DNA of 64,000 bases from Longimicrobiales bacterium (lineage in GTDB: Bacteria > Gemmatimonadota > Gemmatimonadetes > Longimicrobiales > Gaopeijiaceae). The translations under genes were made by a program, and so were the position numbers. The stretch spans positions 369,365-433,364 of the forward strand of contig JAWLHJ010000004.1 in NCBI GenBank assembly GCA_041690395.1, written 5' to 3'. Positions 47,238 to 64,000 of this stretch are shown here, piece after piece (position 1 is the first letter of the stretch; each line of letters opens with the position of its first letter). The notes beneath the pieces were generated by a model. It did no database searches, was not told the DNA's origin, and worked only from the letters and a program-made list of their open reading frames with translations.

Positions 47238-47776
47238 CACGCGAAGAACTCGAACACGCCATCCGCGCAGCCTGCGACGTTGCCGATGACACCGAACTCT
47301 TCGTCTTTGGATCCCAAGCCATCCTGGGAGAGCACCCCAATGCTCCCCCGCGCCTGAGAGCGTCCGTAGAGGTCGACGTGCAGCCCGTGAACAAGCCAGA
47401 AGCGATCGACGCTATCGACGGAGCACTCGGAGAGCTCTCGATCTTTCACTCGACGTACGGCTTCTACGTACATGGAGTATCGCTCGAGACTGCAAGGCTT
47501 CCGGTCGGATGGAAGGAACGCACGGTTCCCGTCTCCCACGTCGTGGGAACCCGTGGAAACACAGGATATTGCCTCGAATCCCACGACCTCGCAGCCAGCA
47601 AGCTTGCGGCCTTTCGCGATAAGGACCGGGACTTCGTAAGGATCCTCCTAGTGGAGGAGCTGGTTGACGCGGGCACCTTGAAGACGCGGATCGATGACCT
47701 CGGACTCCCGCAGGACGAAAGCTCGCGGCTGGGCGCCTGGGTGGACCGGACGGTCCGTGACCTTCATGGGCGCTGA
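47234..47776 (+). CDS. DUF6036-like nucleotidyltransferase (putative toxin)
   Basis: LEHAIRAA..FVFGSQAILG..SVEVDV, GELSIFHSTYGFY, HDLAASKLAAFRDKDRDF. ATGA coupling to the upstream gene. Confidence 0.8.
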   Translation: MTREELEHAIRAACDVADDTELFVFGSQAILGEHPNAPPRLRASVEVDVQPVNKPEAIDAIDGALGELSIFHSTYGFYVHGVSLETARLPVGWKERTVPVSHVVGTRGNTGYCLESHDLAASKLAAFRDKDRDFVRILLVEELVDAGTLKTRIDDLGLPQDESSRLGAWVDRTVRDLHGR

Positions 47777-47812
47777 GGGACTCGAACCCCCGACCCCCTG
47801 CTTGTAAGGCAG
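47767..47812 (-). tRNA. 3' fragment of tRNA-Val(TAC), the att site of the integrated element (not an intact tRNA)
   Basis: Minus strand CTGCC-TTACAA-GCAG-GGGGTC-GGGGGTTCGAGTCCCTC-AGCGCCC-A gives the anticodon arm, T arm and 3' acceptor strand. No matching 5' GGGCGCT or D arm upstream. Confidence 0.9.
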
Positions 47813-47928
47813 AGCCAGGCACACTCAGTCGAGATCACCCGAAGTCACGAAAAGCCTTATAACGACTTGCTTGTTGGCGACTCTGCCGCCAACCTTCGTC
47901 GCTTCCAATCACCGGAAATCACTCCGGC

Positions 47929-47949
47929 CCGTGCACGCACCGTGCACGG
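47929..47949. repeat. 9-3-9 inverted repeat upstream of the integrase
   Basis: CCGTGCACG-cac-CGTGCACGG; candidate arm-type or regulator site. Confidence 0.55.
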
Positions 47950-47976
47950 CAATTCGGCAGACGAAGAGGTGCCCCC

Positions 47977-49302
47977 GTGAGTAACCTGACGAAGAGATCC
48001 GTGGACGGCGCCTCGCCACCCGAGCGCAAGCCGGGCGAGTCGGACCAGAGCTACCGGAAACGATGGGCGTGGTACAGCGACCTGGAGGTCCCGGGGTTCG
48101 GCGTGAAGGTCTACGGCAGCGGCAGGAAGGTCTACGCGCTCCGCTACCGAACTCAGAGCGGCCGGCAGCGGATGTATACCCTGGGCAAGCACGGTGCGCT
48201 GACCATCAAGGAAGCGCGAGACCACGCGCGTGCTAAGAAGGTCGAGATCCTGGATGGGGAGGATCCTCAGGCCAAGAAGCAACGCGAAGCCGTCGAGATC
48301 CGCACGGTCGAGAAGCTCGTCACCCGGTGGATCGAGGACTACGCCAAGAGCCATCGAAAGCGGTGGAAGGAGGACAAGGGCCGCCTGGATCGTCACGTGA
48401 AGCCGAAGCTGGGCCAACTCTCCCTCGAGGATCTCACCCGGGATGTGCTCGCCGCATGGCACCGATCCCTCGGCAAAGGCACGCAGATCCAGGCGAACCG
48501 ATGTCTGGAGACGCTCCGCGCGGCATGGAGATGGGCCGACGGAGAGGGTCTACTGCCGGAAGGTATCCTGGACCCCACCAGGAGCATTAAGAAGTTCCGT
48601 GAGCGCAGTCGGGACCGCTGGCTCAGAAAGCCAGAGGTGAAGCGGCTCATGGAAGCCGTGGCCAAGCAGAGTGACGACTACGTCCGTGCTGCAATTCCAC
48701 TGTTCCTGCTGACCGGCCTTCGGAAGCGTGAGCTTCTGAACGCCCGATGGGAGAACATCGATCTTGAGCGCGGAGAGATTCGCTTGCCTGAGACGAAATC
48801 GGGGGTCGCTCAGGTCCGACTGCTCCGGCCGCGGGCGGTTCAAATCCTGACTCATCTTCCCCGGGCGAGTGAGAGCCCCTTCGTGTTCCCGTCGCCGCAG
48901 GACCCCATGAAGCCACGAGACGACATCAAGAAGCCCTGGGCCGAGATCCGAGAAAAGGCTGGTCTCCCCAGCGTCACGTTGCACGATCTGCGTCGAACGG
49001 CCGGCTCCCTCATGGCACAGGCCGGAATCCCCCTACAGGTGATAGGAAAGGTGCTCGGGCACTCACACCCCGGCGTCACCAAGCTCTACGCGCGTCTCGC
49101 AAGCGAGAACGAGCGCCAGGCGTTGGACACCCTCTCCGACGAGCTTGAGGGAGTCCTCGGGCTCACAGAGGATTCTGAGGCCGAGGAGTCCCGTTCGCTC
49201 GAGGAGAGCCTCCGCGCCGTGCTAGAATCGTCGGCGGGGGATCCCAAGGCGCTCCAGGCGGGTCTTCGGGACCTTGGATTCCGCTCACCGGTCGAGGCCT
49301 GA
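47977..49302 (+). CDS. int: Tyrosine integrase with N-terminal arm-binding domain
   Basis: SDLEVPGFGVKV..YTLGKHGALTIKEAR. Catalytic residues in TGLRKRE, ETKSG, HDLRR, LGHS, TKLYA. Confidence 0.95.
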   Translation: MSNLTKRSVDGASPPERKPGESDQSYRKRWAWYSDLEVPGFGVKVYGSGRKVYALRYRTQSGRQRMYTLGKHGALTIKEARDHARAKKVEILDGEDPQAKKQREAVEIRTVEKLVTRWIEDYAKSHRKRWKEDKGRLDRHVKPKLGQLSLEDLTRDVLAAWHRSLGKGTQIQANRCLETLRAAWRWADGEGLLPEGILDPTRSIKKFRERSRDRWLRKPEVKRLMEAVAKQSDDYVRAAIPLFLLTGLRKRELLNARWENIDLERGEIRLPETKSGVAQVRLLRPRAVQILTHLPRASESPFVFPSPQDPMKPRDDIKKPWAEIREKAGLPSVTLHDLRRTAGSLMAQAGIPLQVIGKVLGHSHPGVTKLYARLASENERQALDTLSDELEGVLGLTEDSEAEESRSLEESLRAVLESSAGDPKALQAGLRDLGFRSPVEA

Positions 49303-49306
49303 CCGC

Positions 49307-50245
49307 ATGAATCAGCCAAACACTCGCCTTCATCTCCCGAATGCGGATCTGAACCGAGAGGTGCTCGAGGGACGGCAGGCGTTCCTCGCCGCCTTAACGC
49401 GCCTCAGGCCGGATGCCCTTGCAGCGTTGCTGGACGTGTCCGCGCTCCAGCTCAACGACCTCGGCAGGGACGCTCTCCACCTCCTCTCCTGGACGGCGAC
49501 CTCTGACGAGGGGCCTCGCCTCCGGCCCGGGTGGGGCGTCGCAAGCTGGGACCAGCGAAGCATCGATCGCTTGGACACCGAGTACCCGAGCTGGCGCGAC
49601 GTGCGGAGCCGAATAGAGCAGCACATCGGAGGCTGGGGGCAGCGTTTCAACCTCTCTGACCCTTGGCTTGGCGCGGCGGGTTGGGGCACACTGCAATCTT
49701 TCCGTCTCTCGGGTAGCCGTGCCTTCCAGCTTCCGCAGCGTTACCAGGTTGACCGCCTGGAGTATCTCCCCGTGGACCCCGATCAAGCCGGGTACGGGGT
49801 ACTAGGCCACCTGACGACACTGGGCGGTCGGAGCACGGATTCCGGCAGCGATCCGGAGAGACTGTCCATCATGGTATCGCTCGACGAATGGCATCCCCTC
49901 GGGGGAGAAAGCCGGTTTGATGCCCGCGCCCGAATGGTGGGCGCGTTGGAGCAGCTCGTGGACGAGTACCTCGAACGCATCGAGGCTCACGCTCGGGATC
50001 ATGGCGCGAAGCCGATATCCGAGAAGCGTGCACGCCGAACGGGTACTCCGGCCGCTCACTACGAATGGCTGGTCCGCTGGCAGGTGCCGCCCTGCGAGAG
50101 CCTTCGGAGCATCGCCGACCAGCCGGACGGGCAGGGAATAGCCACCCGCTCCCTCGGCGAAAAGACCATTCAGGTGGCGTTGAAGGACACAGCAGCGCGG
50201 ATCGGCCTGACGCGCCGCTCCGGGAGGGCCCGAACCCCCAAATAA
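49307..50245 (+). CDS. Hypothetical island protein
   Basis: About 312-aa ORF between int and the AlpA-like gene, with a possible C-terminal HTH. Confidence 0.6.
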   Translation: MNQPNTRLHLPNADLNREVLEGRQAFLAALTRLRPDALAALLDVSALQLNDLGRDALHLLSWTATSDEGPRLRPGWGVASWDQRSIDRLDTEYPSWRDVRSRIEQHIGGWGQRFNLSDPWLGAAGWGTLQSFRLSGSRAFQLPQRYQVDRLEYLPVDPDQAGYGVLGHLTTLGGRSTDSGSDPERLSIMVSLDEWHPLGGESRFDARARMVGALEQLVDEYLERIEAHARDHGAKPISEKRARRTGTPAAHYEWLVRWQVPPCESLRSIADQPDGQGIATRSLGEKTIQVALKDTAARIGLTRRSGRARTPK

Positions 50246-50336
50246 GCTCCCGGGACCCTATTTGGGTGTAGCGCATTCGTGATCTCCGCTTCCGTCACTG
50301 AGCAATTCATCGCTCACGTGTGACGGAGAAACAGAC

Positions 50337-50561
50337 ATGGCATCGCAGGATCTCGAAGACCGAACTACCACCCTGAGTCCCGCCGAGGCCGCCCGGCGCC
50401 TCGGCCTCAAAGAGTCCACCCTCAGAAACATGCGCTGGAGGGGTGATGGCCCCCCGTTCGTCCGGGTTGGTCGCCTGTGCCGTTATCGGCTTGTGGACCT
50501 CGATCGCTGGCTAGCGAGCAGGGTGAGGACTTCCACCTCGGATGTCGGCCGCAATGGGTGA
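50337..50561 (+). CDS. AlpA/excisionase-like HTH protein
   Basis: LSPAEAARRLGLKESTLRNMRWRGDGPPFVRVGRLCRYRLVDLDRWL; GGAG SD. Confidence 0.9.
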   Translation: MASQDLEDRTTTLSPAEAARRLGLKESTLRNMRWRGDGPPFVRVGRLCRYRLVDLDRWLASRVRTSTSDVGRNG

Positions 50562-52443
50562 CCAGGCCGCGCTTGCCACTTCGGGGGCAGGGAGAGGTAG
50601 CGGTGATCGGAAGCTCCGGGATTCACTGGGGCTGGAGCTCGGATTCACCCAAGACTCCCGAACCGGGATCTGGTGGGGGCCCTGTCACGAATGCGGCGAT
50701 CGGCGGGCCTCGGTTAGCACCACCTCGTGGTCGTGTCCACAGTGCGGACCGCGAACGCTCGAGGCAACGGCGGTATTGGCATCATTGGACGAACTGGAGA
50801 GCTGGCCGGAGCGCCCGGACGTCCCCGGTTTCGCCATTCCCGAGCCGTTACCCCTCGATGCACTCCCAACCGTAGCTCGCTCGGCAGTCGCGTCTGTCGC
50901 GGAATCCCTCCAGGTACCGAGCGACCTTCCTGCACTTTTTGCGATCTTATGCGGGGCCGCCGCGATCGGGGACCGTGTAAGCGTGCGTATCCGGTCCACA
51001 CAAGTGGAGCCCTTAGCCCTGTATGGAGTTGGAATCGCCGCACCGGGCGAGCGAAAGAGTCCGGTGTTCGCACGCATGTGCCGGCAACTGTACGACTGGC
51101 AGAAGAGAGCCACGCTGAGGGAGCAGCCACTCCAGCGCGCTGCGCGCGACCGAGTCGATGCCCTCAACACGAGACTGGCTTCACTCAAGAAAGCAGCGGC
51201 AAAGGATCCCGCTGCACTCGACGAGATGGAAGACGCGAGGCGTGAGCTCGACGCCGCGGAGCGGGCTGTTCCTGCCTCCTCTTGGTTGATCGTGGACGAC
51301 GTGACGCCCGAAAAGCTGGCGATGGAGATCGCCGATCAGGGCGGGCGCGCAGCAATCTTCGCTGCTGAGGGGGACGTCCTCCGGATCTTCGCGGGTCGGT
51401 ATGGCAAGGGCGATCCACGTGCGGACCTGTTGAAGAAAGCCATCAATGGTGAGCCCACGCGCGTGTCGCGCGTCGGCAGGGAGACGATCTGGCTTCCGAG
51501 GCCGATCCTAACGGTCGGGCTGATGATCCAACCCTCGGTCCTGGGGTCTCTGGACAATCGAGACAGTCTCGAAGGGGAGGGAGTATTTGCACGGTTCCTC
51601 TTCGTGCAGCCTGAGAGCAACTTGGGATGGCGCCTGACGGGCCGAGAGATCCCGCCTCCGGACCTCGAGGCGGAGAGGAGGTTTGGCCACGCCCTGGAAC
51701 GCCTTCTCGACGTGGCTTCCAGCGAGGTTCTCGAGTCCGGGGAGCGCGTACCCCATATCATCGAACTGTCCGACGATGCGGAGAAGATTCTGTTCGCATG
51801 GGAAAGGGAGATCGAGGGCATGCTCGCCCCCGGCGGCCGGCTTCGATCCATCTCCGGATGGAGTTCAAAGCTGGTCGGGTACACGTGCCGGATCGCGGCC
51901 ATCTTGCAGCTACTGGACCGGGCATCCCGTGGCGAAGCGCTCCCAGGTGGTCATGTCGGGCCGAGTTACGCCGAAGGGGCGGTTCGCATCGCTCGTGCCC
52001 TCACATCTCACGCCATCAGGGTTCTTGGAGAGCTCGCGACATCTCCAGACTCCGCCGATCTGGCATACGTCTGGAGAAAATGCCAAGAATTGAGCCTCCG
52101 CGCTGCACGGAAGCCGCACGACACCCAGAACGACGAAGGTCTAACCCTCACCACACTTCGTCGAGCGATGGGGCGCAAGAGTATCAAGCGCGCAGAAGAC
52201 CTAGCACGCCTTGTTCGCGAACTCGAGCAGCGGAGTTGCTTGAGACTGCTTCCGCAAGGGCCGACTGGCGGCCGGCCAAAGGCAGACCGAATCGTGCTTC
52301 ATCCGATGTTTCGGTGCGGAACCGCAGAAAATGCAGAAAGTCCCTCCGCAGACACTCGCAACACCCTTTCTGCAGTTTCTGCAGTTGTTTCGGAAGGTTG
52401 GCAGAACAAATCTGACCCACTCGATGTCCTGGATGGAGCATAG
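50554..52443 (+). CDS. YfjI/DUF3987 replication-associated P-loop protein with N-terminal Zn finger
   Basis: CHEC..CPQC, PLDALP, APGERKSP, DDVTPEKL, VSRVGR, GVFARFLF. Confidence 0.85.
   Translation: MGDQAALATSGAGRGSGDRKLRDSLGLELGFTQDSRTGIWWGPCHECGDRRASVSTTSWSCPQCGPRTLEATAVLASLDELESWPERPDVPGFAIPEPLPLDALPTVARSAVASVAESLQVPSDLPALFAILCGAAAIGDRVSVRIRSTQVEPLALYGVGIAAPGERKSPVFARMCRQLYDWQKRATLREQPLQRAARDRVDALNTRLASLKKAAAKDPAALDEMEDARRELDAAERAVPASSWLIVDDVTPEKLAMEIADQGGRAAIFAAEGDVLRIFAGRYGKGDPRADLLKKAINGEPTRVSRVGRETIWLPRPILTVGLMIQPSVLGSLDNRDSLEGEGVFARFLFVQPESNLGWRLTGREIPPPDLEAERRFGHALERLLDVASSEVLESGERVPHIIELSDDAEKILFAWEREIEGMLAPGGRLRSISGWSSKLVGYTCRIAAILQLLDRASRGEALPGGHVGPSYAEGAVRIARALTSHAIRVLGELATSPDSADLAYVWRKCQELSLRAARKPHDTQNDEGLTLTTLRRAMGRKSIKRAEDLARLVRELEQRSCLRLLPQGPTGGRPKADRIVLHPMFRCGTAENAESPSADTRNTLSAVSAVVSEGWQNKSDPLDVLDGA
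52324..52382. repeat. Inverted 9-bp-period repeats (candidate replication origin)
   Basis: GCAGAAAATGCAGAAAG (52324-52340) and CTTTCTGCAGTTTCTGC (52366-52382) are complementary at 16/17 positions. Confidence 0.65.
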
Positions 52444-52444
52444 G

Positions 52445-52726
52445 ATGGGTGCTCGGGACCGACGCCACCGTGGCTCTTTGCTGTGTATTCGCCTCGCTGA
52501 GGATATTTCGCGCGTTGTTCCCGACGGGATCGGCACCTGGGATCATGCTTGGGAGATTGTCGCCGCGGCCGACACGGCCTTCATGCTGGCTCTCCTCGAG
52601 TGGGAGGCGACAGGTCAGGCAGCACTGAAACGACCGCTCCGGGACGCCTATTTCGCAGTGATCGACGCCTGGCGAGAAGCGGCGGGGGCGTACCTAAGCC
52701 GGACTTCCATGTGGGCCAATGACTGA
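52445..52726 (+). CDS. Small hypothetical protein
   Basis: ATG directly after the DUF3987 stop; overlaps the next gene. Confidence 0.5.
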   Translation: MGARDRRHRGSLLCIRLAEDISRVVPDGIGTWDHAWEIVAAADTAFMLALLEWEATGQAALKRPLRDAYFAVIDAWREAAGAYLSRTSMWAND

Positions 52727-53252
52727 CGCCAACAATCGCGACGCCCGAGTAGCCACCAGAGGCTTCGATACATCTAAAGACCCTTATCTGGGCGACGATC
52801 CTATGGATAGCCAACTTCGCCTCGGAACGTTCGCCGACCGAGTGACCTGGTTCCTCGAGTCTCAGGGACGCTGGAGCGGACCACAGCTCGCCGAGCAGTG
52901 TCCGCGCTTGGACATGGCCATCGTGCGTACACTGGGCCCGGGCGTATCGACGCTGTTCTGGTCCGACGGGAGCAAGTCGCGTGTCGTACCCATGCATACC
53001 GGCCTGGACGTCGTGCACAACCCGGCCAACGCCGACTTCTGGATCCCCCGCGCGGTGAGTTTCTCCTTCACCTCCTGCAACTTCGGCGGAGAACGCACGT
53101 GGTTCCTATGTCCGAGGTGTGACCGTCGGAGAGCAGTGCTGTACGCGTATCCAGGATTCCTGTGCCGAACCTGCAACGGACTCACGTACTCATCTACCCA
53201 CCGGCGGCCGCCTTGGAGGCCGGAGCCGGTGTGTCTCGTGCAAACGATTTAG
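52719..53252 (+). CDS. Zn-ribbon hypothetical protein typical of integrative elements
   Basis: NFGGERTWFLCPRC..RAVLY..FLCRTCNGLTYSS. Confidence 0.7.
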   Translation: MTDANNRDARVATRGFDTSKDPYLGDDPMDSQLRLGTFADRVTWFLESQGRWSGPQLAEQCPRLDMAIVRTLGPGVSTLFWSDGSKSRVVPMHTGLDVVHNPANADFWIPRAVSFSFTSCNFGGERTWFLCPRCDRRRAVLYAYPGFLCRTCNGLTYSSTHRRPPWRPEPVCLVQTI

Positions 53253-53366
53253 GGAATAGTCCGGGACATCCAGTGGAGCCGGTCGCCTCCTGAGAACGCG
53301 CCAGCGAGTGCCTCGGCCCACTACCTGATGCCCCTGTCGCATACACTTTGCTGGACCGCTGGTGGC

Positions 53367-54173
53367 CTACTCTTCGCCATCCGACCGATCGCACCGGGGC
53401 AGCTTATCCTGCAGGACGATATTGACCGAAGCCACGGCGATTACCGCCGCAGCGATGGCTATTCCCGCGACTTCCTCAGGATCGCCATCGATGAAGAGGG
53501 TGAACCCGGTGTCATCGAACTCGAGAGACTTCGTCTCAATCCTGGGAGCGGGATGCGCCTGAAGAGACAGGAGGTTGTAAAGAGACTTGTGGATCAGCAG
53601 GCTCTGCTCGTCCCCACCGGTAGCCTCGGCAAACTCCTCCGGTAATCTCGTCCGGGACTTGCCGCTCCAGTGAAACTGTCGCCCCTTCTTCTTCGTGCGA
53701 TCGTGCAAGACGGCCTCGAGTGCCTCACTCATTACCTGCGTCTTCTCAGGCACGAATCGGCTCCAGACCTCTGAGTCTTCATCCGCTAAGACAGCGGCGG
53801 ATTTCTGCTCAACGTCCTCTTGATCGACCGCCGCTTGGTTGGCCAACTGCGCCCCGTACTCCCAGTCCAACAGTTCTCCAGCCCGCGCCCGTGCCCCAAA
53901 ATGGTCGTAGTCTGCGTTGCGGGTGCCCAAGAACATCACCTCCTGAGCCGCCTCAAATGCCGACCGTGCCGCTGCGTGCGCGGTACGGGGGACCTGAGAG
54001 TCCCAGAGCAGCCTTACGGCCTTGGCGTGCTGGAACACGTCGCGAGCGAGACCAAGGAGGGCGAGGTCGGGAATCAAGTGGGCTCCGCGCACGCCAGTCG
54101 TGAGGATCGTGTCATGAAGCGACCCTAAGGCCTCGTCCAGGTCCTCGACTGAGCCCTTCACACACACCTCCAT
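53367..54173 (-). CDS. DUF5677-like protein
   Basis: AHAAARSAFEA and SLYNLLSLQAHP motifs; helical. Confidence 0.65.
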   Translation of the reverse strand: MEVCVKGSVEDLDEALGSLHDTILTTGVRGAHLIPDLALLGLARDVFQHAKAVRLLWDSQVPRTAHAAARSAFEAAQEVMFLGTRNADYDHFGARARAGELLDWEYGAQLANQAAVDQEDVEQKSAAVLADEDSEVWSRFVPEKTQVMSEALEAVLHDRTKKKGRQFHWSGKSRTRLPEEFAEATGGDEQSLLIHKSLYNLLSLQAHPAPRIETKSLEFDDTGFTLFIDGDPEEVAGIAIAAAVIAVASVNIVLQDKLPRCDRSDGEE

Positions 54174-54194
54174 GCCTCACAGGAAATCGATGGC

Positions 54195-54284
54195 GACTTC
54201 GAGTTGCTGCTGCAGCGTGCCCGGTGACAGCCAAAGCATAGCGATCCGGTAGAGCGCGACGGCACCAGTCCCTTGTTTGGACGG
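54195..54284 (-). repeat. Degenerate attC-like site (copy 3)
   Basis: Begins just after the HD-nuclease stop: CCGTCCAAAC-aaggg-ACTGGTGCCGTCGCG...CGGATCGCTATGCT...GCAGCAGCAAC. Homologous to copies 1 and 2; the GTTRRRY end is decayed. Confidence 0.55.
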
Positions 54285-54285
54285 G

Positions 54286-56127
54286 TCACGTTCCCTGCCG
54301 CGGCAGCGTAACGGTCGCATAGGCGCCCTTCGTACCCAGGTGCGAGACCTCGAAGTCTTGGTCAGGGATAGTCAGTCGTCGGAACTGACTCCTGATCTGG
54401 GCCTCGGCTTCAGTGTTTCCGCTCTGGGTGTTCTTTGCCTCCACGATCATCAGCACCGGTTGCGATACATCACGAGAGAGTAGGATCGCCAGCCCATCAA
54501 ACTCGGCGACGATCTGCCCGCTCTGTATGACCTCGGTAGATCCCGCAAAGGCGACGATCGCCCCGCGGTAGTCGATCGCCCGCAACGCGGCCTCCAATTG
54601 CACGACCTCATTCAACTGGTCGGCTCCCAAAAGCCCGGACCCCTTCGCCCAGTCCCGATACGTCCCAATCACCTCGGCAGCGCGGGTAGACCCATAGACT
54701 CTGACTACCGGTGACGTCTCAACCGCAGGCAGAGTACGGAGTCGGAAGCGCCTTTGCTCACCAAGGACCTGTGGGAGCAGGAACCTCAACAACGCAAGGC
54801 CGTTTCGCGTCGCACTCGCTGCGGACAGCTGAACGTCGAGCTCTGCAATTCGCGTCTCGAAGTCGAGCAGCTGCTTCCCCACCCTCAGTGCGGCCTTCTG
54901 GCGAACCGAGGTTGACGACGTGCGGGCTAATGCAGCTGTGACCTTCAGGTGTCGATGTCGAGGATCAAAGTCGGCTGCGAATCGACACGACCGGAGGCCG
55001 ACCGCTTGTCGGGCACCGCGCTCCCAGCCCAGGGGGTCCGGCAGAAGCGACGTAGCGAGCGCCGGGTCGAGATCATATGCCAGTTGGACAATCGGGCCGG
55101 TCGGTGTCCCATGCTCGTCCGGAGGACTCGGTGCGGTAAAATGGGTCGAAGCGTCGCGATCAGGGCCCATCAAGTCCCAGAGAGCCCCGATTGTAGCCGG
55201 CTCGGGATCAAGCGCCTCAAGTCGATCGAGGATCTCGTCACCAACCCGAGCATGATTGATGAGTTGGGGCGCCGCCATGTAAACCGTATCTCGCATGACA
55301 CCCTCTAGACGCTCAAGAGCCTCTTGGAACGCAGAGCCCTCAACGAATACATCGGTCAGATAGTGCTCCAAGGAGAAAAAGATCGATGCGAGATCCAGCG
55401 AAAAGGGTACAGGAGCGTAGTGCGAGTCCAGAGCCAAGTAGGTGAGTCGCCTCAGGCTCCGATACAGATTCCATAGCGCGACCAAGCTCTGATCCGTTTC
55501 GCCAGACTGCAGAGTGGTGAACGACCGCAGTATCGCCTGGCAGAAGTCCGCTATCGACGCGCCACCCTGCCTACGCCTGTACCGATCCAGAAGAAACGAG
55601 GCGATCAGGTAGTTGAATTGATAGAGGTTGTTGGTTCTCAACGCGCGATCGAAACGCTCACGATCCGCTTCGGGCAGCCCGGACCGGAATGCGGCCGCCG
55701 AGCGCCGATGGTCGCGGAGATACTTCATGAGAGCGCGCTCGCCGGAGAACGTGCTCGGCAGGTGTCCGATGTTCCCCAGCATCGCAAAGACCATAAGGAT
55801 CTCGCCGTTCGTCGGGTCCTGACCAAGGCCGTCGATTGTACCGAAGGTGTTCCGCCGGCGTCCCAGACTCAGTCCTGCAGGAAGCTGGCCCCGTAGATGG
55901 CACAACTCGGTGATGATGGCCAGCTGCGCCATCAGGTACTCATACCGAGTGTGGTGCGCTCCGGGGAGCACCTGCCGAATGGGTCCGAGTTGATCGATCC
56001 CCTTTAGAGCGCGGACGTGCTCGTATTGCTCCAAGAAGTCGAACACAGTCTTCGCGTACGGGAACAGTCGCACCCGGACGAGGCCGAAGCCCGGCAGGTT
56101 ATAGCGCCAGTATTCCACCGTTGCCAA
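54286..56127 (-). CDS. Catalytically degenerate dNTPase-like HD domain fused to a C-terminal PD-(D/E)xK nuclease
   Basis: LKGIDQLG..PGAHHTRYEY, MLGNIGHLPSTF, RRLTYLALDSHY, C-term AEFDGL...IVEAKN. Start inferred at TTG 56127, just after the attC GTTAGAC. Confidence 0.78.
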   Translation of the reverse strand: MATVEYWRYNLPGFGLVRVRLFPYAKTVFDFLEQYEHVRALKGIDQLGPIRQVLPGAHHTRYEYLMAQLAIITELCHLRGQLPAGLSLGRRRNTFGTIDGLGQDPTNGEILMVFAMLGNIGHLPSTFSGERALMKYLRDHRRSAAAFRSGLPEADRERFDRALRTNNLYQFNYLIASFLLDRYRRRQGGASIADFCQAILRSFTTLQSGETDQSLVALWNLYRSLRRLTYLALDSHYAPVPFSLDLASIFFSLEHYLTDVFVEGSAFQEALERLEGVMRDTVYMAAPQLINHARVGDEILDRLEALDPEPATIGALWDLMGPDRDASTHFTAPSPPDEHGTPTGPIVQLAYDLDPALATSLLPDPLGWERGARQAVGLRSCRFAADFDPRHRHLKVTAALARTSSTSVRQKAALRVGKQLLDFETRIAELDVQLSAASATRNGLALLRFLLPQVLGEQRRFRLRTLPAVETSPVVRVYGSTRAAEVIGTYRDWAKGSGLLGADQLNEVVQLEAALRAIDYRGAIVAFAGSTEVIQSGQIVAEFDGLAILLSRDVSQPVLMIVEAKNTQSGNTEAEAQIRSQFRRLTIPDQDFEVSHLGTKGAYATVTLPRQGT

Positions 56128-56154
56128 CCACCACGACTTGAAGGAGCGTGAGCC

Positions 56155-56246
56155 GTCTAACGTCAGGGGATTCTGCTGCGCCGCCTGTCCGGACACCAGC
56201 GTAGCGTAGCTATCCGTTCTTCCGTGATAGCAGCAATCCATTAGAA
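56155..56246 (-). repeat. attC-like site (copy 1)
   Basis: Minus strand TTCTAAT-GG-ATTGCTGC...GCAGAAT-cccctgac-GTTAGAC. The inner boxes pair with one extra base and the GTTRRRY is perfect. Confidence 0.75.
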
Positions 56247-56360
56247 CGCAACGATGGCACATCGGACCGAAGGGGCTGGCGGGTGCCACCGAACACTAGC
56301 CGACCATGGCAGGGACCGGACCGCTCGGGCCAAAAGTCACAAGAGATCTCGCTGCAGAAC

Positions 56361-57173
56361 TCAGTAGTCCATCTTCAGGTACCGCGTTCCTGTGAACCGA
56401 TCGATGTACGGACCGCTCCTCACGGAGTTCATCAGGTCCCAGTAGCACACCTTCGCATACTCGTTCTCGAGTTCGGGTGGGTACGTGAAGCTGTATCGAG
56501 GATCGTTCACTGACGGGGGCGGCACGTAGGCGCGGTAGAACTCGGGGGCCAGATACTCATGAATGGCCCACCGCACCTCCGTCAACATTTCGGCAAGCGA
56601 GGTGCTGTGGTAGGAGAGAATATCGACGTGAAACCGTTCGTAGAAGTCATCGAGCGCGCGTAGTGAGTCGATGAGCGAGGCGGAGACACCACTTGCCTCA
56701 AGTAGCTTTCGCAACCTCTTGGCGTTCCGTGTTAACCGAGCTGGATTGTGCTTGGAGAGATTGCCACAAATCGCCACGAAGTCGCGGCGACGCAGCGATA
56801 GCGGAACCTCCTCATCGAGGCTTGGAAACCAAGCCTTGACCGTGATCTCGGTGTCGAGCCAAGCAGTGAGATTGGCGACACTGGCGGCGAGCACCTCGCG
56901 AGCTTCGTCTCCGGGTAGCTGCGGATCCGAGGACACGGTTCCCAGTGCATCGAGCAGAGATCCGCGAATACCGACGAGGTCCCGGTCCACCTGCTCAAGC
57001 ATGTCCGCCAACAGCACGCAAAAAAGTGAGCGACGAGTCGGTGATTTGAACGTCGCCTGCGTGATCTCGGGCTCGCCCCCGAAATTGAGCATCTCGTGAT
57101 TCACCATCGAGTTGATCACCTCAATGGTCAATCGCAGCACCACAGCCTCGCGTTCGATCTTTGTGGTGCTCAA
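56361..57173 (-). CDS. Hypothetical protein (cassette gene 2 of 2)
   Basis: 270-aa ORF with atypical codon usage and motif RRDFVAICGNLSKH. Confidence 0.75.
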   Translation of the reverse strand: MSTTKIEREAVVLRLTIEVINSMVNHEMLNFGGEPEITQATFKSPTRRSLFCVLLADMLEQVDRDLVGIRGSLLDALGTVSSDPQLPGDEAREVLAASVANLTAWLDTEITVKAWFPSLDEEVPLSLRRRDFVAICGNLSKHNPARLTRNAKRLRKLLEASGVSASLIDSLRALDDFYERFHVDILSYHSTSLAEMLTEVRWAIHEYLAPEFYRAYVPPPSVNDPRYSFTYPPELENEYAKVCYWDLMNSVRSGPYIDRFTGTRYLKMDY

Positions 57174-57256
57174 TCTGCGGCCTCTGATTCGTATGGAGTT
57201 CTTGCCGTAGCGTGTATCAGGTAACCACGAGCCCGACGCTTTTAACAGGCTCGCTC

Positions 57257-58000
57257 CTATTCGGCCAGTGACTCCATCTCGTCGGCCAGCCTGTTCAAGA
57301 ACGCATCGACTTGGTCGAAGTAGTCGCCAAGGTCCAGAGGAGACACGAACAGGTCCTCGCCGGACAGCGGCGCGTGCACCGCGGTCTTGATCTTCCCGAG
57401 CGGGGACGACGGGTCATTCTTCAGCGCGTCCGGTAAGAAGAGATCGGGCCGCACTTTCCACAGCGACTCTGTCGCGGCACCGTCCGCATGCTTGGTGGCG
57501 TTCGCTACGTGCCGAAGTTCTTCGATTTTGGACCACTCAGGGAAGTCCTTCAAGTCCAGCCCCTGTGCTCCAAACGCCTTCACAATGTTGCTCCCCCTCA
57601 GCAGCGCATGGTCATTCTCGTGCTCCTTTGGAAGTAGTTCCTTCCGCAACAAGAATAGGAGCTTCTGTTCAAGCAGATGATGCAGGGCAACGGCGAACAG
57701 ATTGAGCACGGCTTGCCGGGCGCTCCGCCGCAGGTCGTAGTAGAGGATGCTCTCGTCTCGTGCTGCCTCGTAGTAATCGGCTGGATCGTCATCCGGGTGG
57801 AAGTGCCTCCCGAGTCGTTCCAGTGCCTCCTCGCCCGCGCGCTCTGCCTCATCGTCGATGTTGTCGAACGATGGAAGGGCACGGTCGAGCACAGTCTCAC
57901 GAAGAACGACCACCTCGGGTATGACGATCCTACGGAGATAGTTGGCCCAAAAGGGACCGTTTGCCTTCAGCCCAAGTCCACGGACCTTCGGAAGCGCCAC
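57257..58000 (-). CDS. Hypothetical protein, possibly HEPN-like (cassette gene 1 of 2)
   Basis: Helical 247-aa protein with LHHLLEQ and WSKIEELRHVANATKH. Confidence 0.7.
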   Translation of the reverse strand: MALPKVRGLGLKANGPFWANYLRRIVIPEVVVLRETVLDRALPSFDNIDDEAERAGEEALERLGRHFHPDDDPADYYEAARDESILYYDLRRSARQAVLNLFAVALHHLLEQKLLFLLRKELLPKEHENDHALLRGSNIVKAFGAQGLDLKDFPEWSKIEELRHVANATKHADGAATESLWKVRPDLFLPDALKNDPSSPLGKIKTAVHAPLSGEDLFVSPLDLGDYFDQVDAFLNRLADEMESLAE

Positions 58001-58138
58001 TTTCTCACCTTACGGTTGAGTTGGGGGTCGAGTCGCTGACCCAAGTAGATCAACGTTTCCGTAGTACAGGACACGATGCCGCATTCCGACGAATCCACGA
58101 CTTACGAGCGGATACCTGTAGAATCTGCCCGCGTTGCG

Positions 58139-58233
58139 CTCTAACGTCTCGGAATTCTGCTGCACGGCCCTCCGGTGCACCAGCGTAGCGTTGCCTACCC
58201 AATCTTCCGCGACTGCAGCAATTCCCTGGAAAC
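58139..58233 (-). repeat. attC-like site (copy 2)
   Basis: About 15 bp after the PIN gene stop: GGAATTGCTGC...GCAGCAGAATTCC-gagac-GTTAGAG. Shares CACCAGCGTAGCGT and TCTTCCG with copy 1. Confidence 0.72.
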
Positions 58234-58248
58234 GATCTGCCCGCACGG

Positions 58249-59259
58249 TCAAATAGGTCCCAGCATGCTGCGCGTCGTTGAGACGAGATCTATGAATCTG
58301 AGTTCGCCATCGGAAAGCTCTAGGGACCGGGTCCGCCACAGGCGGCGAATGATCCTCTCGGTCAGCCTGCCTGGTGCCATCCGAAACTGGCAATATCCAT
58401 TGATCTGCCCCGCGCCCCGAGAGTTGTTGAACGGGTAAATCCGCGCGCCTGGAGGGACCGGACCGACAGCTACGTTGCGACCTCGGGTCTCACCGTTGAT
58501 GAAGATGAAGATCCCGTCGGCATCGACCGCCACGGCGACAAAGTTTGAGGATTGCCACTCAACCGCCTGAGGGAGGGTGAGCATACCAACGGGTACCGAT
58601 TCCTGGAACCACCGGAAGACGAAGGCTGCCTGGGCGGGCTCGTAGAACAGCTCAGCCTTGCCGGTCAGGTCCATCACGTAGGGGATCTCCCCTGAGTCGC
58701 GGATCGCTTCACTCGACCAGTTGGGCCAAAACTGACCGAGAAACGTCCACGCGAAGGGGTTTCCGCCGTCCAGGAGCCGCGGATCGTTGGGGTTCCAGAG
58801 GAAGCTGGAAGGACTCTTCACCTTGATGCCGGGTACCTCCTTACGGAAGAACTCCCAGTCGTGCGTCAGGAGGAAGTTGACCTTCCCCGCTAGTGAGTCA
58901 GCCAGCACCTGTTGGTCCTCGCCGGAGAGTCTCGCGGCCCAGGGCGGGAGACATGACCGGTCGCCATCGGCGACACGCTCGACCGTCGTGTGCTGGGCGA
59001 GCTGTAATAGACCATCCGCGAAGTCGCCCACAAGGTTGGGGGCGTTGGTACGCAGGACCCGTAGCGCCATATCCTCGACGTGCCGGCCGAGCACGACCGT
59101 CCCCTGATCCAGGGAGGCGAGGCACTGGTTGCTATACGAGCCGAGATCCAACAAGCCGGCCAGGAGAACGCTAACGTCAGGAGCGATTCTGGACTGCCGG
59201 ACCGTCGGGTGCACGGCTTCTACGATCTCCCTTGGTACCGAATCGAACCGATCAGCCAC
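58249..59259 (-). CDS. PIN-domain protein with C-terminal LamG/concanavalin-like domain
   Basis: PIN: IAPDVSVLLAGLL ... EDQQVLADSLAGKVNFLLTHDWEFF..GIKVKSPSSFL. LamG-like: NFVAVAVDADGIFIFINGE...QFRMAPGRLTERIIRRL. Confidence 0.68.
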   Translation of the reverse strand: MADRFDSVPREIVEAVHPTVRQSRIAPDVSVLLAGLLDLGSYSNQCLASLDQGTVVLGRHVEDMALRVLRTNAPNLVGDFADGLLQLAQHTTVERVADGDRSCLPPWAARLSGEDQQVLADSLAGKVNFLLTHDWEFFRKEVPGIKVKSPSSFLWNPNDPRLLDGGNPFAWTFLGQFWPNWSSEAIRDSGEIPYVMDLTGKAELFYEPAQAAFVFRWFQESVPVGMLTLPQAVEWQSSNFVAVAVDADGIFIFINGETRGRNVAVGPVPPGARIYPFNNSRGAGQINGYCQFRMAPGRLTERIIRRLWRTRSLELSDGELRFIDLVSTTRSMLGPI

Positions 59260-59647
59260 AATACTCCGGGGTTTCGATCTAACAAGGGATCCTGCAGGTC
59301 TGCGTATCGCCGTTCTGCTGAGCGCCTTTTGGCGGGGCTCCCGGAACGTGGCACCAAGAGTTAATGACTGGAGGTGGACGTTCTCCCAAGAGTAGTTCCG
59401 TGGGTCTAGTCTCGACAGGATCTGCGACTCCTCCGCTTCCCAAGGATCACTTCCCTACCCAGCATCGGGCCCGTGGCAGCCCCACCACCTGCTAACCCAG
59501 CAGGGGTTCCGCCACGGCTAAGCCCTTACCTCTTATTGTCATAGAGCACCCCAGTGGCATGCGCGTGCACAAACCGTGCACCCAGGATGGCGCTGGGCGG
59601 CTGGAACCGCGCTCGCGGTTCGCTTTCCCGAACGCGGGAGATAGCTC

Positions 59648-61309
59648 TCAACGAGTGGCCACATGGTGCACGATCGAGTCGGCCAATCGCTCCGAAATGT
59701 CCTGTAGATCCCGAAAGCGTTCCTCAAGCTCGTCGCAGAGCGCCATGAGCTCGGTTACCCTTCCAACGATGCGGCGCTGTTCATCGAGGGGCGGCAAGGG
59801 AATCGGGCAGGCTCCGAAATAATCGCGCGGCACCCGTTGCTGTCCCGCAGTGCCCGTCATTCGTGGCACACCCGCCTCGATAAAGGTCGCAGACTTCAGG
59901 AACACGAGGGCGTAACTCGGCTCAAGAACACCCTGGAACGGTCGAAGAACATGTAGCTCGGTGGTGCCCGCGCCTATTCCGTTCGGCAACCCTGAAACGA
60001 CAACGGATTTTCGGTTCTGGAAGCACGGGGTGATCTTGGCCAACGCGATATCCCCGTCGGCCAGATGCGTGTAGCCCTTCTTGATCTCCTTCCAAAGGCG
60101 TAGCTCCGCCGTGTGCCCGGGTACGAAACCGTCATCGATTGCGGCCATGGGGACGAAGCCGGCCTCCGTTTCATCCGCCACCTCGTTTCTTGGGCCGACG
60201 ATCCCGAGATCCTGCAGTTCCACCCAGCGCCATGTCTCGGGCACCTCGAAGGTCGGGGGTGGATCAGGGATCCTGCATCGGCGTGGCTTCCGCCCCGAGT
60301 ACGTCTTGAGCGCCTGCGCTGCTCGCACCAAGAGCTCGGCGGCAGACTCCTCGCCCGCCCGCTGCTCCACCAGCCTGCCTCTCACTGCCAGATCGAGGAT
60401 GGTCCGCCTGAGGTCGTCTACGCTCTCGGGCGTAGTGAACAGCGACTCCCAGTTGTCACGCATCCGGACCCACTCGCCGTCAGCTAGGAGGGCCTCGAGC
60501 GAGGATACACGGGCCTGGTCGCGAACAGTAGCCGTCACCGCCTCGACTCGGGTGAGCTCTTCTAGAATGGCTTGGAGCCCACCAACCGTCCGGACGATTT
60601 CGTGCTGTACCTCGAGCGGTGGTAGAGGCAGCAAGATCAGAACCATCCGGGTAAGGCCGAGATCCCGGTTTCCGGTACCGTGTGTGTACTCCTGCGCTTG
60701 TTCATAGCAGAAGGGGCTGTTCAGTGCTAAAGCCAGATACTCGGGGGCTACCAATTCCAGATCAGTCCGAAGCACAGCAACGTGGACCCAGACAGAGAAA
60801 TCCATGGATAGGTCGTTGACCACCGCGACCCCCGTCGTCCCCCCTTTGGTGTACAAGATGTCGCCTGGGCGCGGGCGGATGCGCTTACAAAACGACTCGT
60901 GGTCCTCGCGAGAAACATACTTGGTGTTCGTCAGGTCGATGCGCCCCGAGCTGAGCTCGCCAGCCGAAAGCATAGGGACGGCCTCTGGATGCGGGCCGGG
61001 AACCCAGTTCGGCGAGAAGTGGGGCCCGTCCGCGACCTCGTAGCACGCCTCACCAAGGCGAATCCATTTCCAGCCGGATGGGAGGTCGAACGGAAGATCA
61101 CCGGGAAGATCGGGCAGAGCTTTCTTACGTCGGAGTTCCTTGGCTTTGATCTTTCCCTGTCTCCGCCGACGCATTTCCTCGACGATCTCCTCAGCGGACG
61201 ATGTATAGGGCACGGAGCCACCGATGCCCCCTGATATCGCGAGCATACTCGCCAAGTCCCGGAGAGAATCGATCGCCAAGAAGTCGAGAGCGGGTCCGAT
61301 GACCATCAC
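59648..61309 (-). CDS. hsdS: Type I R-M specificity subunit
   Basis: Two TRDs (PFDLPSGWKWIRLGE; FEVPETWRWVELQD), LPPLEVQHEIV / LPPLDEQRRIV, LRRTILDLAVRGRLV. Confidence 0.93.
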   Translation of the reverse strand: MMVIGPALDFLAIDSLRDLASMLAISGGIGGSVPYTSSAEEIVEEMRRRRQGKIKAKELRRKKALPDLPGDLPFDLPSGWKWIRLGEACYEVADGPHFSPNWVPGPHPEAVPMLSAGELSSGRIDLTNTKYVSREDHESFCKRIRPRPGDILYTKGGTTGVAVVNDLSMDFSVWVHVAVLRTDLELVAPEYLALALNSPFCYEQAQEYTHGTGNRDLGLTRMVLILLPLPPLEVQHEIVRTVGGLQAILEELTRVEAVTATVRDQARVSSLEALLADGEWVRMRDNWESLFTTPESVDDLRRTILDLAVRGRLVEQRAGEESAAELLVRAAQALKTYSGRKPRRCRIPDPPPTFEVPETWRWVELQDLGIVGPRNEVADETEAGFVPMAAIDDGFVPGHTAELRLWKEIKKGYTHLADGDIALAKITPCFQNRKSVVVSGLPNGIGAGTTELHVLRPFQGVLEPSYALVFLKSATFIEAGVPRMTGTAGQQRVPRDYFGACPIPLPPLDEQRRIVGRVTELMALCDELEERFRDLQDISERLADSIVHHVATR

Positions 61310-62769
61310 GATTCCATGGCTTCTTCCAACACGGTCCGGACCGTGGCGCGAAGTCGGTCTATTTCCAAGCGGACGGCCGCAAGATCTCTGAGCAACTCAT
61401 CGGGATCATCGTGGGATACCGAGCCAGCATCCGGATGGCTGATGTCGAGGTTATAGCCACGCTCCACCACCTCTCCAATCGGTACCAACCACGCCCGCTC
61501 TCCGCTCTGCCGCGCCTCCCACCATGCTTTCTCTGAATCAAATTCCTCGATCCGTATAGGCTTAGTCTTTGAATAGGACTTGTAGCCCTCAGGGTAGGGA
61601 TGCTCGTAGTACCAGATCTCCTTCGTCGGCTCCCCCTTGGTGAAGAAAAGGATATTCGTGCGGGTGGGCGTATACGGCTGAAAGACCCCCTTAGGCAACC
61701 GGACAATCGTGTGGAGGTTGCAGTCCCTAAGCAGCTTCTCCTTGATCCTCGTCTTGATGCCCTCGCCGAAGAGCGTTCCGTCGGGCAGGACAATCGCGGC
61801 CCGTCCCCCGTCCTTCAGCAGTTCCATCACCAGCACCAAGAAGAGATCGGCGGTCTCGCGAGTCCGAAACTCTGATGGGAAGTTGTTCTCGATCCCGTCC
61901 TCCTCCATGCCACCGAATGGTGGATTCGTTACAATGACATCGACCTGGTCCTTAGGTCCATAGTCCCGGAGCGGCTTTGTCAGTGTGTTTCCGTGGCGAA
62001 TGTGAGAGGGTATGGCGATCCCGTGCACCATCATGTTTGTAACGCAAAGCAGGTGCGGGAGCCCCTTTTTCTCAATTCCCCGCACGCTTCGCTCTAGAAG
62101 CGCCTGCTCGTCGGTCGTCTCCACCTGCCTCTTCATGTGTTCGTAAGCACAGGTTAGGAAGCCGCCGGTTCCGCAGGCGGGATCAAGAACAACCTCCCCT
62201 AGCTGCGGGTTCACCAAGTCCACCGCGAATTGGGTCACCGCGCGCGGCGTGTAGAACTCCCCGGCGTTCCCAGCCCCTTGGAGATCCGTGAGAATCTGCT
62301 CGTAGATCTCCCCAAACAGGTGGCGGGTCTTCGCCTGATTGAAGTCGATATCCGACTGCAGCCGATCGATTACCTGGCGCATCAGGGTGCCCGACTTCAT
62401 GTAATTGTGGGCATCCTCGAAGACGCTCCGAATTATCGCGGCCCGGTCGTGCTCTTCACCCTCAAACCCCGCCAAGTCGAGTCCTTTGAGCGTCGGGAAG
62501 AGCTCTCCATCCACGAAGGCCAGAAGCGCGTCACCGGTGAGCGAGTCCTTTCCCAGGCGTTCGGAGTCCGCCCAGGAGTGCCAGCGGAGCCCCTCCGGGA
62601 CTGGAGACCGATACCCATCCCGGGTCAACTCCAACTCCTCCTCGAGATCGCTGAAGATCTTCAGAAACAACATCCATCCGAGTTGCTCGATGCGCTGGGC
62701 ATCACCCGCCACACCCGCGTCCTTCCGCATGATCTTCTGCATGGACTTGATCGTTCTTGAAAGCGACAT
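61306..62769 (-). CDS. hsdM: Type I R-M N6-adenine methyltransferase
   Basis: GEFYTPR, DPACGTGGFL, TNPPF, VLPDGTLF. Confidence 0.97.
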   Translation of the reverse strand: MSLSRTIKSMQKIMRKDAGVAGDAQRIEQLGWMLFLKIFSDLEEELELTRDGYRSPVPEGLRWHSWADSERLGKDSLTGDALLAFVDGELFPTLKGLDLAGFEGEEHDRAAIIRSVFEDAHNYMKSGTLMRQVIDRLQSDIDFNQAKTRHLFGEIYEQILTDLQGAGNAGEFYTPRAVTQFAVDLVNPQLGEVVLDPACGTGGFLTCAYEHMKRQVETTDEQALLERSVRGIEKKGLPHLLCVTNMMVHGIAIPSHIRHGNTLTKPLRDYGPKDQVDVIVTNPPFGGMEEDGIENNFPSEFRTRETADLFLVLVMELLKDGGRAAIVLPDGTLFGEGIKTRIKEKLLRDCNLHTIVRLPKGVFQPYTPTRTNILFFTKGEPTKEIWYYEHPYPEGYKSYSKTKPIRIEEFDSEKAWWEARQSGERAWLVPIGEVVERGYNLDISHPDAGSVSHDDPDELLRDLAAVRLEIDRLRATVRTVLEEAMES

Positions 62770-64000
62770 CTAGGCTACTTCGTCCGAGTAGAGTTCCGAT
62801 TCAAGCTCGTGAATCGCATCGAGGTACTTCTGCTTGCCGCCAAAGGCCCTTACCAACTCGATCGGCGTCCCGAGATCCGAGATCGGTCGGAGTTGGAGTA
62901 CGGCGAACTCCTCGATCTGCTCGACCCCTTGGTCGGCATACCGCTCGAGCAGGGCATCCAGTACGGCGCGGGCGGTCCCTTCGTACTTCGTAAACACGTC
63001 TCGCCTCTTCACCGCCTCGGCCCGCTCCTTGCGAGTGAGGGCAGGACGGTCGTACGCGACGTGGCAGATGAGATCAAACGGGTCGTAGTCGGGACCCACC
63101 ATATCCGCCAGGGCTTCCAGTAGAACGCCCTGCTCTCTGAGTTCAGCGATGACCGCCTGCTTCCGATCCGCTGTCTTCCAAGAGGTCAAGAAGGCGTCAA
63201 GGGAAGTGAATTGCTCCCCGACCGTGCGGCGTGTGTAGTCCTTCAGCGACTCGGTGACGAGCTTGCCGTCCTTGTCGTAGTACTGGACGCGCTCGGCGAC
63301 GATGCCGAAGCGCTGCCCGCCGACGACATACCGTAACCGAGGCTCGGGATCCACCGGATCGACGATGACAGGATCCTCTTCGTCGTCTGGGGGCTTGATG
63401 GGCTTGTCATCGCCTGGCTGGTAGACCTGAAGCGGCGGCCCGTCCCAATCGGGATCAGCGAAGAGCTCCGTCGCTTTCCGGAAATCGATGATCGTGAAGA
63501 ACTGCTTGCCGTAGTCCTCACGGATTCGGGTGCCCCGCCCCACGATCTGCTTGAACTCCGTCATCGACCCGATGCGACGGTCCAGGACAATTACGTGACA
63601 GGTCTGCGCGTCCACCCCGGTGGTCATCAGCTTCGAGGTCGTGGCGATGACGGGGTAAGGCTCCTTCGGGTTGATAAAATGATCGAGCTGGGCCTTCCCC
63701 TCCTTCTCATCCCCCGTGATCCGCATGACATACCGGTGGTCGGCGGTCACCAGCGGCTTGTTCTCGGAGACGTTCACGAGCGCTTCCCGCATCCGCTCAG
63801 CGTGGTTGATGTCCTCACAGAAGACGATGGTCTTGTGCATAGGGTCGGTGCTGTGGAGGAACTCGGAGACACGCTCCGCCACACGCTTCGTTCGCTCCGG
63901 GAAGACGATGGACCTGTCGAAGTCCATTTGGTTGTAGATGCGGTCCTCGATCACCTCACCCTTGTCGTCTACCTGCCCCGCCGTCGGTCTCCAACCCTGG
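62770..64000 (-). CDS. hsdR: Type I R-M restriction subunit (EcoAI/EcoEI-like), 5' part outside the window
   Basis: KTIVFC, TTSKLMTTGVD, FKQIVGRGTR, and an EcoEI-type C-terminus DPFDLICHVAYD..FGGKQKY. Confidence 0.95.
   Translation of the reverse strand, partial: QGWRPTAGQVDDKGEVIEDRIYNQMDFDRSIVFPERTKRVAERVSEFLHSTDPMHKTIVFCEDINHAERMREALVNVSENKPLVTADHRYVMRITGDEKEGKAQLDHFINPKEPYPVIATTSKLMTTGVDAQTCHVIVLDRRIGSMTEFKQIVGRGTRIREDYGKQFFTIIDFRKATELFADPDWDGPPLQVYQPGDDKPIKPPDDEEDPVIVDPVDPEPRLRYVVGGQRFGIVAERVQYYDKDGKLVTESLKDYTRRTVGEQFTSLDAFLTSWKTADRKQAVIAELREQGVLLEALADMVGPDYDPFDLICHVAYDRPALTRKERAEAVKRRDVFTKYEGTARAVLDALLERYADQGVEQIEEFAVLQLRPISDLGTPIELVRAFGGKQKYLDAIHELESELYSDEVA

Follow-up and report, generated by a model that had tools for sequence, protein, structure and literature searches.

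Integron cassettes have been described in several settings. Clusters of attC sites without an integron integrase (CALINs; PMC4889954; Neron et al. 2022, PMC9024848) comprise at least two co-oriented attC sites in a short array, with no neighbouring intI and with genes of obscure function. A GWT consensus for secondary-site insertion has been described together with attG sites and single attC sites lacking integron integrases (SALINs; Loot et al., 10.1101/2022.09.11.507474), inverted-integrase (co-oriented) integrons are known from the Treponema group (PMC4889954), a large integron has been reported in Gemmatirosa (PMC9024848), and integron cassettes often encode anti-phage defences (10.1101/2024.07.02.601686). 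Here we analysed a 64,000-nucleotide stretch of the genome of a Longimicrobiales bacterium (the window; G000:C4:369365-433364, where G000 is this genome and C4 and the like are its contigs; relatives' genomes are numbered G005, G051 and so on, G091 and G144 being counted in genome-wide tallies only). It holds a block of genes that is like a CALIN in all the features named above. With a probability of roughly 80%, we read the block as three cassettes with four full-length genes and damaged attC sites, lying in a tRNA-Val island probably as fixed cargo and with a likely anti-phage role. The block is a decayed CALIN, that is, an integrase-less cassette cluster of known kind.

An earlier note on this DNA had proposed that three related repeats are attC sites with paired boxes, one extra base and a terminal GTTAG. 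This description is accurate for s1 (58139..58232) and s2 (56155..56247), both on the minus strand and 80% identical over 84 nt: they carry the boxes ATTGCTGC/GCAGAAT plus a single extra base, and terminate in GTTAGAG or GTTAGAC (minus strand). There are two instances in the window of the pattern formed by L', spacer and R', whereas 100 shuffles gave a mean of 0.00, and the covariance check that had been suggested returned a clear signal, as a model built from relatives' sites only scored s1 at 61.1 bits (E 1e-16) and s2 at 46.9 bits (E 2.6e-12), the next-best match in the island reaching 9.5 bits. The third repeat, s3 (54188..54284, minus strand), was described wrongly, for it has ACTGGTGC and GCAGCAAC where the paired boxes are expected and no terminal GTTAG. 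It nevertheless resembles the family, as none of 300 shuffles and none of 1500 random pieces scored as high in a position-restricted hidden Markov model (HMM) test and it shares 67% identity over 86 nt with an intact family copy. All three sites lie on one strand, s1 and s2 being 1.9 kb apart and s3 another 1.9 kb on.

The damage to these sites is specific. Each of them is without one R box: in s1 R'' is deleted along with its AAC, in s2 the AAC of R'' has become AAT and the spacer is 3 nt shorter, and in s3 R'' is retained while R' with its GTT is gone. The earlier claim of eroded proximal cores therefore stands for s1 and s2, whereas s3 has lost its distal core instead. L boxes and R' are intact in s1 and s2, which retain the L''/L' inverted repeats with the extrahelical bases of the R''-L'' arm; the L boxes of s3 are mismatched. 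The L stem accordingly still has a high predicted probability (0.96 in s1 and 0.87 in s2), while that of the R pair is 0.03 in s1 and at most 0.24 in s2; in 32 intact sites of relatives the medians for L stem and R pair were 0.98 and 0.93, and 28 of the 32 exceeded 0.5 in R-box pairing. As R''-L'' is essential for attC recombination (PMC2727003) and the R pair fails to form, s1 and s2 are likely dead for recombination, and s1-s3 as a whole are likely relics. Contigs from a DNA run that is possibly the source sample match the R'' region of s3 with zero differences, and contigs of the same run cover s0, described next, with 4 differences over 231 nt; no RNA data set was listed as containing the block.

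The weak fourth remnant suspected at about 59277-59330 does consist of attC halves, though of two half-sites, one of them inverted (s0, 59277..59324). The plus-strand 5' half at 59277-59298 was equalled by 0/300 shuffles and 1/1500 random pieces, and the minus-strand 3' half at 59303-59324 is weak (2/300 and 11/1500). The start of cassette A, G|TTAGAT, is supplied by s0. Speculatively, such a trace is what an inverted cassette, later deleted, might leave. As a candidate attI, s0 was ruled out, having no resemblance to the attI candidates of relatives.

Cassette ends in the window match as integron recombination predicts. In units B and C the start of the cassette complements the unit's own R'' (crossover G|TT), as it does in an array in the closed genome of a relative described below. 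For unit B (58144-56161, with two ORFs, open reading frames), the earlier claim of an 11/13 match proved real and extends to 18/23; for unit C the match is 10/12, provided a shift of 1 nt is allowed. As control we used 142 plus-strand GTTAG starts in the genome, none of which reached the values of unit B (11/13, 18/23) or that of unit C (10/12). The R'' of unit A is deleted and its end match is merely suggestive. A 10-bp direct repeat flanks s1 (window 58118-58127 and 58235-58244) and may represent similar cassette ends or chance. No attC was found on searching after ORF D, the ORF beyond s3, and between the two ORFs of unit B.

The repeat belongs to a wider family. BLAST with s1 found matches in 19 of 151 genomes, its own included, and the search of relatives led to parent arrays behind intI, as the earlier note had hoped. 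The covariance model was trained on 32 copies from the fetched loci of relatives that fitted the box pattern, no window site being included. Family sites are 78-119 nt long, with an R''-L'' spacer of 5 nt in 31/32 and an L'-R' spacer of 8 nt in 30/32, so that length and spacers fit the published attC range of 55-141 nt with spacers up to 10 nt (PMC7370490); the bottom-strand extra base is C, as opposed to the conserved G given in PMC2727003. On the bottom strand the family stem has two unpaired columns and is 93% paired, compared with 23-54% in slid controls. The stem covaries, with 59 cells showing changes on both sides (0/500 shuffles as high), eight stem pairs with changes on both sides and a covariation of 0.224 against 0.085 (0/500 shuffles), a test that kinship among the sequences can inflate; the count of covarying pairs alone was matched by 58/500 shuffles. 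The model matched 49 of 150 genomes, among them 44 of 90 in the same taxonomic family and 0/30 and 4/29 in two others. Both AAC and GTT are retained in 57 of 74 full-length matches from relatives, 17 being broken, and in none of the six copies of this genome, which is a contrast and not a test, the sequences being kin and the loci selected. In one relative, an array of more than 60 kb lies behind intI (G057:C28:713000-778700), with mostly ~175-nt sites scoring 27-40 bits.

The association with integron integrases was assessed with TIGR02249, which matched strongly in 41 of 151 genomes (37 above the cut-off), none of these being the present one. The reported lack of IntI is thus borne out: there is no TIGR02249 match above cut-off in this genome, which is 98% complete, and tblastn with the IntI of a relative returned nothing significant in the island; neither island nor genome yielded an intI remnant. 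In the closed genome G051 the first cassette begins 311 nt beyond intI, with a match of 12/12 to its own R''; adjacent start/R'' pairs agree at 7 or 8 of the 8 free positions in 11 of 15 cases, as against 3 of 274 for non-adjacent pairs. Across 20 intI loci, sites lay downstream on the intI strand in 15, were divergent in one and were not seen in four, proportions that are not unbiased since the loci were partly chosen for nearby matches and flanks were fetched mainly downstream. In G015 a partial intI match is followed by a recombinase lacking the IntI insertion just before an attC array (G015:C1:2204724-2206568), and this recombinase has seven near-identical copies in that genome.

These arrays bear directly on whether the repeats are instead a dispersed family of the kind of repetitive extragenic palindromes (REP) or miniature inverted-repeat transposable elements (MITE), or chance palindromes. 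Copies do occur at three separate places in the genome, and orphan clusters exist in relatives. There are, however, just six copies of the window type in 4.3 Mb, three of them beyond the window, and all six directly follow ORF stops and are co-oriented with those ORFs. Their ends match between neighbours and not within a copy, and arrays with such matching ends sit right behind intI. The earlier note had named in advance the pattern that would speak against it, a repeat unconnected with ORF ends or intI, and what was found is a repeat tied to both. A REP- or MITE-like origin is therefore very improbable, the adjacent-end test refuting it, and the integron origin that had been proposed for the repeats is upheld.

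Two further places in the genome carry window-type copies. The first is a second island (C6:31109-55515), bounded by a 46-bp tRNA-Arg (CCG) repeat and holding two broken window-type attC sites, where the start of an Abi_C cassette matches its own R'' and genes for MmeI-like and GmrSD proteins adjoin. At the second (C1:984243-984961), a 718-bp AAA_28 cassette closed by a broken window-type attC interrupts, at a GAT target, a toxin gene (DUF5615, paired with the DUF433 gene ahead of it), the DUF5615 frame resuming across the cassette junction. A different repeat of ~100 nt was observed beside tRNA genes or clusters at C6:30940-31045, C1:922 kb, C3:71 kb and C7:0.5-0.9 kb.

This genome also maintains a resident cassette platform of another sort. 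Its best TIGR02249 match is a tyrosine recombinase without the IntI insertion (C2:763469-764299), directly downstream of which lies a co-oriented array of another site type (C2:763469-775842 and C1:983750-1018088), with about 49 sites, 13 HMM matches belonging to the C2 end and 36 to the C1 end; the two ends appear to join as one array. Resident sites are ~157-163 nt long with a perfect 8-bp L stem; 37 fit a strict pattern, with a 7-nt spacer in 37/37. Adjacent ends match at 6 or more of 8 positions in 12/12 and 20/25 cases, against 10/157 and 35/650. An orthologue in G004 heads a similar array (13 matches), and strong matches to the recombinase occur in five of six same-genus genomes, the sixth (G005) having IntI and at least 25 window-type sites. 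The array is headed by a near-identical tandem cassette duplication (C2:764928-766651), real or an assembly effect. Four resident-type copies lie in and beside a duplicated tRNA-Lys (C5:375114-386958), and further single or paired copies at C1:93 kb, C2:384 kb, C6:27-29 kb and C7:109 kb.

The main rival to our account follows from this platform, namely that the resident recombinase inserted the window cassettes or still moves them in trans. It does head an array of some 49 sites with matching cassette ends, and one window-family cassette, that at the GAT target on C1, lies in the distal part of this array. The resident sites differ from the window type in length, stem and spacer, however, and apart from the C1 case the two types are absent from each other's examined loci: none of 37 stretches selected because they hold intI genes or window-type sites yielded resident-type sites, and window-type sites were found in none of six stretches beside orthologues of the C2 recombinase. 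All six window-type copies are broken while 37 resident sites fit the strict pattern, and extrahelical bases are accommodated by the I2 domain (PMC4792948), the C2 recombinase being without the IntI insertion. We hence consider action by this recombinase quite unlikely. To judge from their sites, the window cassettes seem foreign to the platform resident here, and this would account for the decay of those sites.

Our reading of the block as fixed cassette cargo could be placed in a wider scheme, which we put forward tentatively and with low confidence. The genome would run two separate cassette systems. The resident one would pair bulge-poor sites with a recombinase that lacks the IntI insertion; IntI-type cassettes arriving from relatives would fall outside its reach, land at secondary tRNA-island sites, lose R boxes and end up as permanent defence cargo next to restriction-modification (R-M) genes. 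If true, integron reservoirs would thereby feed mobile defence islands by a one-way route that is observed on two occasions within one genome and carries undescribed defence proteins (PIN-LamG; a SAMHD1-like HD domain fused to a nuclease).

The island harbouring the block measures 17.8 kb and is bounded by a perfect 46-bp repeat of the 3' end of tRNA-Val(TAC). GC falls from ~0.69 in the host part to 0.58-0.64 beyond 47 kb of the window. The earlier note was right about the island, but the tRNA-Val at 47767 is just the duplicated 46-bp 3' end (47767..47812, minus strand; 46/46 identity to the intact tRNA), which scores under the Rfam tRNA cut-off; the partner copy (65521-65566) and the intact tRNA-Val gene (65520-65595) lie beyond the window. 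The island core consists of a tyrosine integrase (47977..49302, plus strand; Pfam Phage_integrase and Arm-DNA-bind_3), which is not IntI (TIGR02249 20 bits), and of an excisionase-like HTH_17 gene with a DUF3987 gene (50337..52443, plus strand). Five co-oriented minus-strand ORFs follow, along with a type I R-M system of hsdS, hsdM and hsdR (59648..64000, minus strand; hsdR extends to 65112). An Rfam scan of window 47000-64000 yielded no relevant family. Just beyond the island end, a helix-turn-helix gene and a DUF6036 nucleotidyltransferase form a pair (window 46308-47776) that overlaps the duplicated tRNA fragment, and an ADOP-type permease near the island scored 531 bits, below the cut-off, and is in keeping with a host from the Gemmatimonadota or Acidobacteriota.

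The four cassette ORFs (A, B1, B2 and C) are spread over three cassettes, B1 and B2 sharing unit B, and each is as long as its homologues. ORF A (58249..59259, minus strand; 321-336 aa) combines an N-terminal PIN-like domain with a LamG/ConA-like domain; of 22 homologues scanned, 14 matched PIN families and seven Laminin_G_3 (E <= 0.05), three exceeding a curated PIN cut-off. Its Atlas lead was 0.84, and it was found in none of 250 genomes of the order. ORF B1 (57257..58000, minus strand; 247 aa) is a HEPN-like all-helical protein with a confident predicted fold (pLDDT, the predicted local distance difference test, 91), whose top VIA-align matches are HEPN-type chains (Z 8.0, middling for a helical protein; rmsd, root-mean-square deviation, 4.4-5.1; 138 aligned), although Foldseek returned nothing at E <= 0.001. 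Five of 16 homologues weakly match the PADLOC model RTasHEPN, residues N167, K170 and H171 are invariant (the HEPN motif criterion being of the R-x4-6-H type), and B1 is present in two of 250 genomes of the order. ORF B2 (56361..57173, minus strand; 270 aa) could be assigned to no family and has a conserved R..GN.SKH motif, its Atlas matches all being below 0.8. Kinship between B1 and B2 was considered and is not detectable (probability 1.9%). Among the best 80 of 299 loci with B2 homologues, 77 had room to look, and in 14 of these 77 metagenomic loci a strict attC stands right after the stop, compared with 0/308 control positions; three of the 14 also match the family covariance model.

ORF C (54286..56127, minus strand; ~613 aa, start uncertain) has a SAMHD1-like HD fold (Foldseek to SAMHD1 9mr6, E 4e-6; profile match E 3e-5) with an altered HD motif, followed by a C-terminal E-x-D...E-x-K motif, which we take to be PD-(D/E)xK-like; E542, D544, E563 and K565 are invariant in 39 sequences. 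ORF D (53367..54173, minus strand), co-oriented just after s3, carries DUF5677 (Pfam E 3.4e-8) with a weak match to PADLOC PDC-S52 (E 0.005), and its membership in the block is uncertain. Such defences are frequent among integron cassettes, which makes a defensive role the most probable one for the four cassette proteins, an anti-phage function being suggested by domain types and neighbourhood.

If the cassette reading is right, the block would have been put together by an IntI acting in a relative or in some previous host and would have entered the island through secondary-site insertion by IntI or as part of an array, the cores being lost once no cognate IntI remained. Transcription may start from promoters of the genes themselves or from ones upstream, and the products may serve as defences of the toxin or nuclease type next to the type I R-M system.

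Several results weigh against this reading. The covariance model detects neither s3 nor s0, so the attC kinship of the third repeat stands in the HMM test but not in this one; the selection pattern for the training copies required the boxes, which inflates their invariance and fixed some columns. The bottom-strand folding that had been proposed as a check did not bear the idea out, whole-site folds of s1-s3 being no better than shuffles (z -1.4 to +0.9), and the palindrome alone therefore proves little. Among the contig pieces listed (8 of 14), none spans the R'' of s1 or s2. No attC follows distant homologues of ORF C (12/12 with room to look) or the one B1 homologue examined, so that the expectation of attC-flanked homologues elsewhere holds for B2 but not for these two. 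In 15 stretches beside related island integrases in 13 genomes, some cut by contig ends, there were no attC matches, and cassette capture is hence no general habit of this island family. PADLOC and Pfam defence models match none of A, B1, B2 and C themselves, and no sigma-70-like promoter was found in window 53000-59800.

The last two results also favour the view of the erosion as neutral decay among passengers that are not essential, with no defence role and with the R-M neighbourhood incidental, as does the fact that broken sites are common in relatives too (the 17/74 above). Yet the four ORFs have kept the length of their homologues while the adjoining sites bear indels, their PIN, HEPN-like and nuclease-type domains are of a kind expected of defences, and the parallel cassette on C6 is an Abi_C gene. 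Neutral decay thus appears unlikely, if less so than action by the resident recombinase.

Taken as fixed cargo, the block offers a case, datable in principle, of integron cassettes becoming island genes, their fixation having been proposed as one source of CALINs and of the content of defence islands. From it come an attC model for a little-studied family (matches in 44/90 genomes) and four candidate defence genes missed by current models, and the cassette on C1 is natural evidence of GWT-site insertion within a gene. CALINs, attG insertion and defence cassettes are already published, and the surprise to specialists should be moderate; the array behind an insertion-less recombinase, beyond the window, is the larger surprise. 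In the literature covered, from which subscription journals were mostly absent, nothing was found on this attC family or on tRNA islands of this group that contain decayed cassettes; likewise nothing was found on arrays behind insertion-less recombinases, supplements being outside coverage and IntegronFinder tables possibly listing related arrays.

Compared with a complete integron, the block has no IntI with its specific insertion and no attI. The cassettes of Darracq et al. (10.1101/2024.07.02.601686) are alike in being small one- or two-gene units with HEPN-like, Abi_C and nuclease-fusion proteins, whose homologues also lie near integrases outside integrons, but none of the four window proteins matches a PADLOC model. 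With respect to attG sites and SALINs (Loot et al.), the C1 cassette at G|AT fits the GWT consensus and the C6 cassette begins at a G|TT that is not part of an attC, whereas the outer junctions of the window block are without a clean GWT, s3 ending in G|CC and s0 being chimeric. The parent arrays of relatives are like the Treponema-type integrons (PMC4889954) in lying downstream of intI on the same strand, although they belong to a different lineage. From the CALINs that it otherwise resembles, the window block differs in that all its sites are damaged and that it resides inside an integrase-bearing tRNA island.

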